Positions 35,460-41,253 of a stretch of DNA of 64,000 nt are shown one piece after another; within the stretch, counting starts at the first letter, position 1, and each line of letters opens with the position of its first letter. This stretch comes from Euryarchaeota archaeon UBA58. Its GTDB lineage: Archaea > Thermoplasmatota > Poseidoniia > Poseidoniales > Thalassarchaeaceae. Made by a program: the position numbers and the translations under genes. Under the pieces are notes generated by a model. The model was given only the letters and a program-made list of their open reading frames with translations. It ran no database searches and was not told the DNA's origin. The DNA lies in assembly GCA_002498525.1 (NCBI GenBank), contig DAHR01000008.1:3089-67088 (forward strand), given 5' to 3'.

Positions 35460-36962
35460 ATGGATGCTTACGATGAACTGATGGCGCGACTGAAAGACAT
35501 CGATTTGATTTCACAGGTCGGTGGCCTCGTCGGCTGGGATCAGGAAGTGATGATGCCACCGAAAGCCGCTGGACTGCGCGCAGAACAACTCTCGTGGATT
35601 TCGAGAACCGGCCACGAAATGATCACAGATTCGCGCATCGGTGAGTTGCTCAGCGATTTGGAGTCGCGAGACGACCTCGATGAAATACAGGCAGGAAACC
35701 TCCGCCTCGCGCGCGAGAGTTATGACAAGGCGACTAAACTGCCAACAGAATTCGTCGGCGAGTTAGCCAAGCACCAATCGAAATCACAGGTCTCCTGGAC
35801 CGAGGCGCGCGCGGCTGACGATTTCTCGATCTTCCGCGACGACCTCGCCAAGATGATCGACATGTGCCGGCAGAAGGCCGACTATCTGGGCTACGAGGAT
35901 CTGCGCTACGACGCCCTGCTCGACCTCTACGAATCGGGCCTCACGGTGGCCCGAGTCGACCCACTTTTCGCTGGACTGCGAGAGAATGTCGCACCGCTCG
36001 TCAAGGCCGTAGTAGAACGCGGTGAGCGCCCCGACATGGCATTCGTAGATGACAACAAATGGGGTCAAACAGGCCAGGAAGCCCTCAGCCAAGCGGTATC
36101 CGAAGCCATTGGCTTCGACTTCAAAGCAGGCCGCCGTGACGCTTCTACCCACCCATTCTGCGGCGGCTCGAACCCAGACGACGTCAGATGGACGACCCGC
36201 TACAGCGAGACCGACCCCTTCGGCTCGCTGTACGGCTCGATGCACGAAACCGGTCACGGACTGTACGAGCAAGGCCGGCCGAGAAACCTCGACTTTCAGC
36301 CGGCCGGCCAAGCGAATGGACTCGGCGTCCACGAGAGCCAGAGCAGGCTGTGGGAGAATCAGGTCGGTCGCAGCCGAGAGTTCTGCGAGTGGGTTTTGCC
36401 GTTGTGGCAGGAGCATTTTCCAGATTTCATGGAGGGAGTGTCTGCCGATGACCTCTGGCGAGCTGTCAATCTCGTCGAGCCGAGCATGATACGCGTCGAG
36501 GCTGACGAGGCGACTTACAACCTTCACATCATGATTCGATACGAGATTGAAAAACGACTCATCGCGGGCGAGATCGAAGTCGATGATCTACCCGATGCGT
36601 GGGATGACATGTACGAAGAATTCCTCGGAATCAGGCCACCGAACCGCACTTTGGGGGTCTTGCAGGACATTCATTGGTCCTTCGGCGCCTTTGGTTACTT
36701 CCCCACTTACACTCTGGGCAATCTGTATTCGGCGCAGCTGCTGGAGGCTGCTCGCAAGGTGCTTCCAGACCATGATGAGCAGATGCGCCGGGGCGAATTC
36801 GGACCGCTTTTGGCTTGGATGCGCGAGCACGTGCACGCGCGTGGGAGCATTCTCGAGCCGGCCGCGCTGATCGAAGAAGCGACCGGCTCGCCGCCCTCTC
36901 CAGATGCATTCGTCACCTACCTGCGCGACAAGGTCGAACGCCTCTACAATGTGACCGCTTGA
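35460..36962 (+). CDS. Carboxypeptidase Taq (M32) metallopeptidase
   Basis: HPFCGG, zinc motif HETGHGLYEQG, IRVEADEATYNLHIMIRYEIE, DIHWSFGAFGYFPTYTLGN. Confidence 0.9.
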   Translation: MDAYDELMARLKDIDLISQVGGLVGWDQEVMMPPKAAGLRAEQLSWISRTGHEMITDSRIGELLSDLESRDDLDEIQAGNLRLARESYDKATKLPTEFVGELAKHQSKSQVSWTEARAADDFSIFRDDLAKMIDMCRQKADYLGYEDLRYDALLDLYESGLTVARVDPLFAGLRENVAPLVKAVVERGERPDMAFVDDNKWGQTGQEALSQAVSEAIGFDFKAGRRDASTHPFCGGSNPDDVRWTTRYSETDPFGSLYGSMHETGHGLYEQGRPRNLDFQPAGQANGLGVHESQSRLWENQVGRSREFCEWVLPLWQEHFPDFMEGVSADDLWRAVNLVEPSMIRVEADEATYNLHIMIRYEIEKRLIAGEIEVDDLPDAWDDMYEEFLGIRPPNRTLGVLQDIHWSFGAFGYFPTYTLGNLYSAQLLEAARKVLPDHDEQMRRGEFGPLLAWMREHVHARGSILEPAALIEEATGSPPSPDAFVTYLRDKVERLYNVTA

Positions 36963-36973
36963 AAGGTCGATGA

Positions 36974-37085
36974 CACCACAGAGCACACTGAGTCACAGGT
37001 TTTGATTTCCAGGTAGTGAATCAACAGCTTCCTTCGCGGCCACTGCGCGAGGCTCTCCGTGTTCTCTGTGCCTCTGTGGTTGATT
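36974..37085 (+). repeat. Intergenic imperfect-palindrome element, copy B
   Basis: Left arm ACACCACAGAGCACACTGAGTCACAGG (36974-37000). Right arm CTCTCCGTGTTCTCTGTGCCTCTGTGGTTGATT (37053-37085). Nearly identical to the copy A right arm. The left arm matches the reverse complement of 58478-58509. Confidence 0.65.
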
Positions 37086-37124
37086 ACGCGGAAGTTCGAT
37101 AATCGAGGGTTCCGAGGGAGGGTC

Positions 37125-38180
37125 GTGTCAAAGCCTTCTCTGGAGAGCCTCGCCTCATTCATTCGCGACCTCGACAGCAAATGCACACTAGCTCGTTTGA
37201 GCGAGAATCACATCTTCGCCGGCTCGCACGGGGGAGAACTCTGCTGTTGGTATGCAGAATCAGGAGATCTGCGATGGCGCGCTGAAGTGAGCGGTCCGAT
37301 TTCTGATATCGCAATCGACGCCGGACGAATCTACGCCACCGCTTCCGCTTCGCTGCATGCCTTTGACGCTGAGTCAGGCCAGTTGTTGTGGAGTCGCGAA
37401 CTCGAAGGAGGGAGTGATTTCGTACAGGCTTGGAGTGGTGTGGTTTGGGCGTCTTCATCGGTTTACGAATTGGAAATCGATGACTTCATCGAGGCGACGA
37501 TCTGGCGCTTCGATGACTCTGGCGAGCAGCTTGAGCGATGGACTATCAACGAGCGCCCGTGGCATTTCGGATTGCACGAAGATGGGGGGGTTCTACTCGG
37601 GTTGGGTCGGCCTCGGTGTGGATTTCTGCGGATTCGGCCAGGCGAGAAGGCCGAACATTTCGAATTCGCCACAGACAGTCCGGTGACCTGCGGTGCTTGC
37701 GGTTCTGCGGGTCGTTTCCTGCTCGGTCATAGTGATGGAAGCATCAGTTCTGTCGGAACTGATGAGGAAATTGAGCAATATGTCGAATCCTTGGTCACGA
37801 CCATCGCCGGAACGGATTCAGGTTTCATCTCCGGCCATGAGGATGGCTCAATCTGGTTCGACGGTGGGGTGAGAAATGTCGATGGCACTGTAGATGCAAT
37901 TGCGGATCTGAGTGGTGATGGCTGGGCATCGAGTTGGGACGGCAGCGAATCCCGAGTCTCTCTGCTCGCTGCCGAGGCGAGAGAATTCTCACATGATGCG
38001 AGAATCCGACACATGGATTCTCACCAGAATCGACTCATATTCGGCGATGACCTCGGAAAAGTCATTCTACTCGAGTCAGCAGTCGTCAAACGCCGTCTGG
38101 AAGAGGATCTTTCCTCAGCACCGGAAAATGACCGGAATCAGGCGCTGAGAGAGCGTTTAAGGATGTTAAGAAACAGTTGA
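37125..38180 (+). CDS. PQQ-like / WD-like beta-propeller repeat protein
   Basis: Repeated blades with ...ESGDLRWRAEV..., ...ESGQLLWSREL... Start moved to GTG 37125, preceded by GGGAGGG. The track start at 37059 lies inside repeat copy B. Confidence 0.5.
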   Translation: MSKPSLESLASFIRDLDSKCTLARLSENHIFAGSHGGELCCWYAESGDLRWRAEVSGPISDIAIDAGRIYATASASLHAFDAESGQLLWSRELEGGSDFVQAWSGVVWASSSVYELEIDDFIEATIWRFDDSGEQLERWTINERPWHFGLHEDGGVLLGLGRPRCGFLRIRPGEKAEHFEFATDSPVTCGACGSAGRFLLGHSDGSISSVGTDEEIEQYVESLVTTIAGTDSGFISGHEDGSIWFDGGVRNVDGTVDAIADLSGDGWASSWDGSESRVSLLAAEAREFSHDARIRHMDSHQNRLIFGDDLGKVILLESAVVKRRLEEDLSSAPENDRNQALRERLRMLRNS

Positions 38181-38197
38181 TGCCCGGTTCGGAACGC

Positions 38198-38232
38198 ACT
38201 GGAAATTAACATCCACAACCCCTATTTCCAGT
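38198..38232. repeat. Inverted repeat ACTGGAAAT-N17-ATTTCCAGT (hairpin or paired protein-binding boxes)
   Basis: Arms are 38198-38206 and 38224-38232, perfect 9-bp complements. Begins 18 nt after the stop of the beta-propeller gene. The minus-strand copy is followed by AGGGG. Confidence 0.5.
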
Positions 38233-38361
38233 CCACAGTACCTCATTCAACGAAACATTTAAGCGCCTCCCCCGCACAGACCAAAGTTGCCGCTTCAGGG
38301 GAGTGGTGTGGGGCGCGCTTCGGCGCAAACCGCGGGCCACAGAACCGAACCCCAAACTTGG

Positions 38362-38400
38362 GGTGGTAGAACCGGAATCCGAAAGGAGGAAGGGGAACGA
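38362..38400 (+). repeat. Direct repeat unit R1 (GGTGG.AG.GAACCGGA..CG.AAGGA.GGGGA)
   Basis: GGTGGTAGAACCGGAATCCGAAAGGAGGAAGGGGAACGA. Aligns with R2 and R3. Confidence 0.55.
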
Positions 38401-38441
38401 TCGAACCTGTCTGAAGGGCAGGGGAGATACGGTCGAACTGA

Positions 38442-38480
38442 GGTGGAAGGAACCGGACGAAAGAAAGGGGAGAGAAGCAA
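38442..38480 (+). repeat. Direct repeat unit R2
   Basis: GGTGGAAGGAACCGGACGAAAGAAAGGGGAGAGAAGCAA. Aligns with R3 with two single-base indels and a few substitutions. Confidence 0.6.
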
Positions 38481-38620
38481 CGGGGAAAGCTGGGGAAAAC
38501 ACAACCGCACCGCTTCGGCGGGGAGAACGCAACCGTGCCAGCAGACCAGACCGGAGATGTATGTGTGAAGGGCGAGAACCAGAGATGGGACAGACCTGAG
38601 GCAGATTCGTGGGAAACGAA

Positions 38621-38660
38621 GGTGGAAGAGAACCGGACGCAAGGAAGGGGAAAGAGAAAC
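38621..38660 (+). repeat. Direct repeat unit R3
   Basis: GGTGGAAGAGAACCGGACGCAAGGAAGGGGAAAGAGAAAC. Confidence 0.6.
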
Positions 38661-39035
38661 TGGAGGGAAACACGGCGGGAACGAGAGCGCGGAGACGCGT
38701 GGAGGACCGGCATCGATTCTGAAGAACGAACTGGTGAGAGCCAGGGAGGGAAACAGGAACGAAGAAGCGGGGAGCGATCCCAGTGGAATCGGAAACGGCG
38801 AAAGGGCTCTTCGGAGTCAAGAAGTCATCTACCCGGAGAAAAGAACCGCCTTCGGGCGGGGAAAAGAACCGGACCCTGCGGAGTCAGCAGGGGGGATGCT
38901 CCCCCATGTGCAGAACCCCTGCTGCTCCCACCTTGTACCAAAGTACGGCATCGGCCCATTCCATCAGATTATCAATCATTGCGGAGCCTCTCGCTCCGCT
39001 GACTTCAGTTTCGAGTGGCTCCAAGAATCGCCGTC

Positions 39036-40637
39036 TCACTGCTTCGGGCCGATCATCTCATTCGGTCTGACCCATTGATCGAACTGGTCGTTCGTCAGCA
39101 ACCCGAGATCCAGCGCAGCAGCGCGCAGAGTCAATCCCTGCTGATGCGCGTGCTTGGCGATCTTGGCCGCGCTGTCGTAACCGATGTGATTGTTCAGCGC
39201 GGTAACCAACATCAATGAATTCTCGAGGTGCGAACGAATCGCATCCTCATTGGCAGAAAGCCCGTCGACGCACTTGTCGGAAAAGCTCCTGCAGGTGTCG
39301 GCGAGTAGTCGTGTGCTGTGCAACAGATTGTGGATTATCATCGGCTTGTAGACGTTGAGTTCGAAGTTGCCTTGGCTGCCTCCAACGCTGATTGCAGTGT
39401 GATTTCCCAAGACTTGGCAACAGACCATCGTCATCGCCTCCGCTTGAGTCGGATTGACCTTGCCTGGCATGATGCTCGAGCCTGGCTCGTTGGCCGGGAG
39501 GGACAATTCGCCAAATCCACAGCGTGGTCCCGATCCCATCCAACGGATGTCATTGGCGATCTTCATCAGGCTCACAGCAAGCGTGTTCAAGGCGCCTGAT
39601 GCCGCTACTATCGCATCGTGTGCGGCGAGTTGGGCGAATTTGTTCTCAGCACTGATGAATGGCAGTCCTGTCTTCTCACCGATTCTGTCGGCGACCTTGT
39701 CGGCGAACTCGGGATGGGTGTTGAGACCGGTTCCAACGGCCGTTCCTCCGAGTGCGAGTTCGAGAAGGTCGTCGAATGCTGCTTCAATTCTGCGGATGTC
39801 GGCTCCGAGCATGGCGACGTAGGCGCTGAATTCCTGTCCGAGGGTGAGTGGGACGGCGTCCATCAAGTGGGTTCTGCCGATCTTGACGATGCCTGAGAAC
39901 TCCTCGGATTTGGAGGCCAGTGCTGCGCGTAATGCCCTGAGCGAGGGAAGCAATCTGTGGTGAATCTCCTCCGCAGCGGCGATGTGCATGGCCGTTGGGA
40001 AGGTATCGTTGCTGGATTGGCCCCGATTAACGTGGTCATTCGGGTGGACGGGGGTTTTGCTTCCGAGGTCTCCGCCAGCCATCTCAATCGCTCGGTTGGC
40101 GATGACCTCGTTGGCGTTCATGTTGGTCTGGGTTCCCGAGCCGGTCTGCCAGATTCTGAGGGGAAAATGCTCGTCGAGCTCGCCCGATATCACTTCGTCG
40201 CAGGCCGATGTGATGAGGGCGCCGACCTGTGGGTCTAATTGGCTGAGGCTGACATTGATCTCAGCTGCCGCTTGTTTGAGGATTCCGAAGGCGCGAATTA
40301 TCGAGGTTGGCATCTTGTCGTCGCCGATTTCGAAATTAATCAGCGAGCGGGCGGTCTGGGCGCCGTAATAGCGGTCGGCGGGAACTTGCAATTCGCCCAT
40401 CGAGTCTTTCTCGACGCGCACCTCGCCGGATTCGGCTGCAGCGCTCCTAGTTTCGACCGCGCGCTCGAATCGCGTAGGGATGGTCTCGGCTTCGAGGCCT
40501 TGATAGATCATTTTGGCGATGGTTACGGAGCGGCCTTGCTCTCTGCCCTTGCCGACACGGCGGTCAAGCTTCCTCGCCAACTCCTCTGGAATGCTGATAC
40601 TGATGATTCTGCGGTCGCCCACGCGGTGTCTTGCCAT
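39036..40637 (-). CDS. fumC: Class II fumarate hydratase (FumC) with in-frame N-terminal ribbon-helix-helix (CopG/Arc-like) extension
   Basis: Residues ~73-533 are FumC ([43 protein letters not shown] signature). Residues 1-~50 ([23 protein letters not shown]...[15 protein letters not shown]) follow the RHH strand-helix-helix pattern. There is no stop between the two parts. Confidence 0.85.
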
Positions 40638-40649
40638 GTTTCAAAGGCG

Positions 40650-40670
40650 TTAATTACTTAATAATAAAGA
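40650..40670 (-). promoter_or_regulatory. Putative archaeal TATA box/BRE for the RHH-fumC gene (leaderless transcript)
   Basis: Only strongly AT-rich patch in the spacer. The minus strand reads TCTTTATTATTAAGTAATTAA, centred ~26 nt upstream of the ATG at 40637. That is the spacing expected if transcription starts at or next to the start codon. Confidence 0.45.
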
Positions 40671-40767
40671 TTCGCTTTCGGGACGCAGTAATACGGTTGT
40701 CCGCGAAGGTAAACGAAATAGCAGGTCTGTGAAGCGGTTCGAATGCCCAAAGTAGTTCAAATCGAGG

Positions 40768-41253
40768 TCAGAGTCGCTCGACCTTGATGATCTGCTGCGG
40801 ATCGTTGGGCTTGTCGCCAGCCATCGTGTCGCATCTCTCGATGCTGTAAACCACATCCATGCCCTCGACAACCTCGCCGAAGACAGCGTGGTTCCCATTC
40901 AGCCACGGAGTCGCAACGGTAGTCAAGAAGAACTGCGAACCACCCGTGTTTCGTCCAGCATTAGCCATCGAAAAGAGGCCGGGCTTGTCGTGTGACTTGG
41001 CAAGAGCTGAATCCTCGCAAGGAATCTTCCAACCAGGCCCGCCAGTGCCGGCGGCCCGACTGTTGGGGTCCTTTGAGCGAGGGCAGCCGCCCTGGATCAT
41101 GAAATCCTTGATTACGCGGTGGAAGTGCAGGCCGTTGTAGAATCCGTCATCTACGAGCTTGAGGAAGTTCCCTGTGGTCTCAGGGCAGTCCTCGGTGTAC
41201 AGTCCAATCAGTATCTCCCCAGCGCTGGTTGTCATCTTGACTACAGTAGGCAT
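40768..41253 (-). CDS. ppiB: Peptidyl-prolyl cis-trans isomerase, cyclophilin type
   Basis: GNFLKLVDDGFYNGLHFHRVIKDFMIQGG, FSMANAGRNTGGSQFFLTT, PWLNGNHAVFGEVVEGMDVV. Start at ATG 41253 (MPTVVKMTTSAGEILIGLY). Confidence 0.9.
   Translation of the reverse strand: MPTVVKMTTSAGEILIGLYTEDCPETTGNFLKLVDDGFYNGLHFHRVIKDFMIQGGCPRSKDPNSRAAGTGGPGWKIPCEDSALAKSHDKPGLFSMANAGRNTGGSQFFLTTVATPWLNGNHAVFGEVVEGMDVVYSIERCDTMAGDKPNDPQQIIKVERL

Follow-up and report, generated by a model that had tools for sequence, protein, structure and literature searches.

Beyond RNase P RNA, SRP RNA and rRNA, large structured noncoding RNAs (ncRNAs) are rare in archaea. The archaeal RNase P and SRP (7S) RNAs are abundant, structured, single-copy housekeeping ncRNAs. 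OLE RNA, restricted to the Bacillota, is large (~600 nt), highly expressed, structured and trans-acting, contains conserved sequence blocks, and is thought to form a ribonucleoprotein, or RNP (PMC9723947, PMC12054373). The bacterial CsrB and RsmZ RNAs, of ~350 nt, are stable and protein-titrating: they carry GGA in many hairpin loops and titrate CsrA. Closest by host is Tan1 (Thalassoarchaea ncRNA 1), a 229-nt RNA found by metatranscriptomic dRNA-seq of the Red Sea in Candidatus Thalassoarchaea, which is among the most abundant transcripts of Marine Group II (MG-II) archaea and has a predicted conserved structure (PMC5069720). In the same work, 13 'IDP' mRNAs made up 93% of the MG-II RNA-seq reads (PMC5069720).

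Here, we provide evidence that an intergenic spacer of an MG-II archaeon of the family Thalassarchaeaceae (MGIIb) very likely encodes an independently transcribed, abundant and structured ncRNA of ~670 nt on the + strand. The window, a stretch of 64,000 nucleotides, lies on contig C15 of a genome of 1.58 Mb that is 86.7% complete. A previous sequence-only reading of this DNA had placed an 855-bp spacer between the stop codons of two convergent genes and proposed it as the locus of a large + strand ncRNA. ORFs and Pfam matches confirm the arrangement. Upstream, and sharing the strand of the RNA, lies a PQQ-like beta-propeller gene (37059-38180, + strand, Pfam PQQ_2), which ends with a TGA at 38178-38180, and downstream lies the convergent fumC gene for fumarase C (39036-40637, - strand, Pfam Lyase_1 and FumaraseC_C). 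No other gap between real genes in the window is as long as the spacer. That the remaining gaps stay below 400 bp is also roughly right, as our scan, which was crude and ORF-based, met gaps above ~400 bp elsewhere only at mis-called genes. As for the proposed ncRNA, it is now supported by transcription, by a promoter, by covariation and by the noncoding status of the spacer.

The spacer is transcribed, and its RNA is abundant. When metatranscriptome contigs from four studies were placed on 36800-40800, the four metatranscriptomes gave contig depths of the order of 10^5-10^6 (1e5-8.5e5) across 38274-38943, whereas the two flanking genes stayed at ~0; contigs from related organisms are counted in this depth, which sums every contig, and the contigs show neither strand, exact ends nor level. 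Since the flanking genes are at ~0 depth and the spacer is at very high depth, both DNA contamination and read-through are ruled out. For 38274-38809, the evenly covered runs X2 and X13 had mean contig depths of 1.4e5-8.6e5. Furthermore, 67-79% of the sampled words of the spacer were present in 13 RNA runs from ~10 studies. The RNA contigs run from 38289-38299 to 38953-38958. With strand and ends drawn from the promoter, from the G-U pairs and covariation, and from these contig boundaries, we place the ~670-nt transcript on the + strand at ~38285 to 38955, both ends being approximate.

The runs X1 and X9 differed from X2 and X13 in their coverage: the 5' ~260 nt (38274-38541) had a contig depth 100-500 times that of 38542-38943. 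This deep part may correspond to a 5' fragment of ~230 nt that arises by processing and is stable.

The earlier view that a spacer enclosed by two stop codons needs no promoter has to be abandoned: a conserved BRE/TATA promoter lies inside it, and no read-through arrives from the flanking genes. A BRE-like CGAAA together with a TATA-like box, TTTAT(G), at 38250-38262 on the + strand, is invariant in the 27 aligned genomes, including the most distant ones; the TATA-like box reads CATTTAA in the UBA58 genome and GTTTATG in most relatives. This promoter-like element precedes the 5' ends of the RNA contigs by 25-30 nt, and no further copy of it was found in the genome. At the other end, a T-rich 18-mer, TTATCAATCATTGCGGAG (38969-38986, + strand), directly follows the 3' end of the RNA, ~50 nt before the fumC stop. 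It has a single copy in the genome, does not vary within the genus, is conserved in part outside it, and may be a termination signal or a feature of the fumC 3' end. No TTTT run occurs on the + strand anywhere in the spacer.

The RNA shares its strand with the propeller gene, and its 3' end lies ~80 nt short of the fumC stop; one could therefore take it for a long 3' UTR or read-through product of the propeller gene, or for a cis-antisense RNA to the 3' end of fumC, in either case acting on its neighbours. We consider this improbable. Depth over the propeller gene is near zero and the RNA has its own promoter; overlap with fumC would require a long fumC 3' UTR, and none was observed. Because the RNA does not overlap the promoters of the flanking genes and is driven from its own, it is not expected to regulate them, and this promoter together with the position between convergent genes points to a role in trans rather than to cis regulation.

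The composition of the spacer is unusual, as had been noted from the letters of the sequence. The + strand is purine-rich and poor in T (13.2% overall, 7-9% in 38400-38800). It contains 15 GGGG tracts where 2.2 are expected from window frequencies, 41 GGA against 13.9 expected, and four copies of GAACCGGA against 0.1 expected; in the consensus structure, many of the GGA are paired or fall in its variable regions. The abundance of GGGG and GGA had thus been rightly perceived. The G-quadruplex potential read into the G tracts does not hold, as neither spacer strand contains a canonical G-quadruplex motif. The repeats are short and imperfect, and the longest is a 26-nt module whose second copy lies 180 nt away.

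This composition bears directly on a second alternative, namely that the spacer is the gene of a low-complexity, intrinsically disordered protein, rich in E/G/R/K if read on the + strand or in S/P/F if read on the - strand, as metagenome gene callers annotate it. Long ORFs are present on both strands. The antisense ORF 38206-38820 (- strand) matches 66 metagenome clusters of 'hypothetical protein', some with more than 200 members, and highly expressed 'IDP' mRNAs have been described in MG-II from the Red Sea (PMC5069720). However, a purine-rich strand and its pyrimidine-rich complement rarely contain stops, which accounts for the long ORFs, and the matched 'proteins' are translations of the same conserved DNA. 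In none of the six frames do the three codon positions differ in substitution rate (ratio 1.03-1.06), whereas the fumC control shows a 4.8-fold excess at third positions. The spacers of relatives also carry many frameshifting 1-nt indels, some of them common to whole clades. A protein gene is therefore very improbable, and the earlier judgement that none of the spacer ORFs is coding stands, given the lack of codon periodicity and the 1-nt indels of the relatives. The spacer is neither a coding gene nor a pseudogene, as had been envisaged as an alternative: it is a structured ncRNA locus, and one that is widely misannotated as protein-coding. Speculatively, 'IDP' calls could stem from low-complexity ORFs that lie within GA-rich, abundant ncRNAs of this kind.

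The RNA is structured, and evidence for this comes from the comparison of relatives rather than from the single sequence, whose fold z-score is modest on the + strand (-1.27) and nil on the - strand (-0.08). RNAalifold applied to the spacer alignment gave 98 + strand pairs, of which 41 are changed on both sides, and 80 - strand pairs, of which 25 are changed in this way. The homologs' ML tree served for 60 simulations with an unconstrained substitution model (GTR+F+G4, with empirical site rates, the real gap pattern and the consensus as root). In these, the covarying pairs numbered 6.9±3.2 on the + strand and 6.5±2.5 on the - strand, and the observed values were reached in none of the 60 runs.

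Two domains stand out, for which models (R2 and R1) were built and then realigned to 45 homologs. The 5' domain, R2 (38283-38440, + strand), comprises 35 bp in 8 helices; 98% of its cells are paired, against 40-51% when the partners are slid, and 17 pairs are changed on both sides. Its covariation score is 0.290, compared with 0.135 after shuffling (reached in 0 of 500) and at most 0.062 after sliding. The 3' domain, R1 (38760-38955, + strand), comprises 40 bp in 7 helices, with 97.4% of cells paired against 37-52% slid, 13 pairs changed on both sides, and a covariation score of 0.171 compared with 0.080 shuffled (0 of 500) and at most 0.052 slid. Both domains thus clear the shuffle and slide controls; such controls use the sequences of the structure itself and are by design inflated, a bias from which the phylogenetic simulation is free. 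Between the two domains extends a variable middle (38441-38759, + strand) with repeated GA-rich modules AACYGGACGNAAGGAAGG, seen as direct repeats at 38450-38475 and 38630-38655. The module occurs in one to four copies per homolog, depending on the lineage, and distant relatives have insertions or gaps in this part.

At the 3' end of R1, a terminal helix of 16 bp (38877-38930, + strand), with a CAGCAGGGG/CCCCTGCTG core, closes an invariant inner hairpin and is supported by covariation as well as by conservation. The 9-bp stem recognised beforehand is this core, and it is indeed present at 38885-38893/38916-38924. In the helix as a whole (~38877-38893/38914-38930), GC has become AU on both sides in 10 sequences, and UG:21/CG:12 is an example of its G-U pairs.

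The four TTCG hairpins of the sequence-only reading, checked by hand, all lie where it had put them (38315-38326, 38510-38521, 38805-38818 and 38846-38859), and two of the four are kept in relatives through compensatory stem changes; the hairpin at 38846-38859 shows both GC to CG and GC to UA changes. Their loops are another matter. UUCG tetraloops had been taken as the hallmark of a stable RNA, but TTCG is not enriched in the spacer (7 against 6 expected), and at the loop positions relatives have UCCG, UUAG, UACG or GCAA. The support for the structure rests on the covariation of the stems and not on the loops, which vary in this way.

G·U pairs help to orient the RNA. R2 includes a 5'-terminal hairpin with invariant G-U pairs (GU:33, GU:34), and invariant or frequent G·U pairs argue for the + strand, since the - strand would have C·A mismatches in their place. 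This orientation agrees with that of the promoter, and folding energies are stronger on the + strand than on the - strand. The assignment of the transcript to the + strand, first made from the loops, is thus backed by independent features.

The element is single-copy in its genome. It was found in 24 of 24 genomes of the same genus, at ~83% identity and nearly full length, and in none of the 16 genomes sampled from other orders. The order propeller, spacer, fumC is kept in 35 of 35 GTDB loci. Among genomes of the genus, conservation of the spacer matches that of fumC and exceeds that of the 3' end of the propeller gene, and in distant relatives some of its blocks are conserved more than fumC. 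The R1 and R2 models find it in every sampled genus of the Thalassarchaeaceae; some of the copies are divergent, in the same place downstream of fumC. The sister family f3 includes two genomes, G142 and G124, whose divergent copies also keep this synteny; these copies may reflect horizontal transfer or an issue of taxonomic assignment. In the other representatives of this family and in those of another sister family (f2), fumC is adjoined by ordinary protein genes and the element is absent. Propeller homologs of 27-36% identity lie upstream of the element in other families, and the propeller gene itself is syntenic across families.

Conservation is very uneven along the RNA. Positions 38895-38919 are 100% identical in 27 non-redundant homologs, the remaining spacer being 50-80% identical, and a 3' core of ~50 nt that includes the terminal helix is identical across the family (27 genomes). 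The 21-nt core 38896-38916 has exact matches in 35 GTDB genomes, all of them Thalassarchaeaceae/Poseidoniales/Marine Group II MAGs, and no viral contig carries one. An element acting as DNA, such as a sequence bound by a protein of replication or segregation and transcribed only incidentally, could account for the invariant core and for the near-perfect terminal palindrome, but is scarcely probable given the very high transcription with sharp boundaries, the support of the structure by G-U pairs, which are meaningful in RNA only, and the GC skew of contig C15, which is weak, with no clear switch at the locus or elsewhere in the window and no sign of a replication origin or terminus.

How does the ncRNA compare with known RNAs? 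A cmscan of the spacer against Rfam (E<=10) returned chance matches only (H19_3, E=1.8; FsrA, E=9.6). In the divergent homolog loci (E<=1) no family matched the element, an sR12 match (E=0.91) lying elsewhere and being due to chance. No known family thus corresponds to the spacer or its homologs. Like the archaeal RNase P and SRP RNAs, the element is abundant, structured and single-copy. It is neither of the two: RNase P RNA is encoded on contig C16 and SRP RNA on contig C18 of the same genome (RF00373 and RF01857, respectively), in line with the earlier failure to see their motifs in the spacer. A C/D box sRNA is likewise rejected, as box C (RUGAUGA) is absent from both spacer strands and complementarity to rRNA or tRNA does not exceed a dinucleotide-shuffle null.

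With CsrB and RsmZ, to which the GGA density had been likened, the element shares repeated GGA-containing modules in a stable RNA. Unlike in those RNAs, the modules are blocks of 18-25 nt in the variable middle. As a matter of membership the analogy fails: the host is an archaeon, and CsrA (PF02599) was not found in its genome (86.7% complete), the control genomes being positive. Titration of some other archaeal RNA-binding protein is a possibility hinted at by the repeated GA-rich modules.

The resemblance to OLE RNA is broader, since both are large, highly expressed, highly structured and lineage-restricted, and contain blocks of highly conserved sequence. However, the element is archaeal and GA-rich, has repeated modules, and neighbours a PQQ beta-propeller gene instead of oapA. 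It is not an OLE RNA: Rfam gives no OLE match, the host does not belong to the Bacillota and no oapA adjoins the locus. The element is thus most likely a new ncRNA class, devoid of Rfam relatives and specific to the Thalassarchaeaceae (MGIIb).

Tan1 comes from the same host group, Candidatus Thalassoarchaea being the Thalassarchaeaceae, and was compared with the element by description only. It measures 229 nt, against ~670 nt and two domains here. Tan1 might be the processed 5' ~230 nt of the element's RNA, a length that fits the 5' part over-represented in X1 and X9.

What could such an RNA do? The BRE and TATA-like box at 38250-38262 start the synthesis of an abundant + strand RNA of ~670 nt, from ~38285 to 38955, and this RNA folds into a 5' domain of ~155 nt and a 3' domain of ~200 nt joined by the variable middle. 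In the mechanism that we propose, it would then act in trans as a stable RNP scaffold. Through its repeated GA-rich modules it could, like a sponge, take up an RNA-binding protein in several copies. The invariant 3' core may serve a tertiary contact or be recognised by a protein in a sequence-specific manner: it is identical at paired and unpaired positions alike, which suggests recognition beyond the needs of the secondary structure. This protein-binding or scaffolding role, drawn from the modules and the core, is offered tentatively, as a possible rather than a probable function.

Whatever its partners, the RNA offers a tractable target, its conserved promoter and two-domain structure lending themselves to RNP pulldowns from seawater biomass. 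The antisense 'hypothetical protein' annotation can distort metatranscriptomic estimates of expression in MG-II, and the reported dominance of 'IDP' mRNAs (PMC5069720) may be compared in this respect. In its most ambitious form, which we regard as rather unlikely, our reading would make the element the dominant ncRNA of MGIIb, which ranks among the most abundant archaea of the surface ocean, and either a large archaeal scaffold RNP of a new class, perhaps a counterpart of OLE, or a sponge whose repeated GA-rich modules sequester some archaeal RNA-binding protein, with Tan1 possibly its processed 5' fragment. Large, abundant and structured ncRNAs are already a known kind; what this locus would add is a well-supported new class in globally abundant archaea, whose RNA is highly expressed in the ocean across many studies and is limited to a very abundant, uncultured family of marine archaea.
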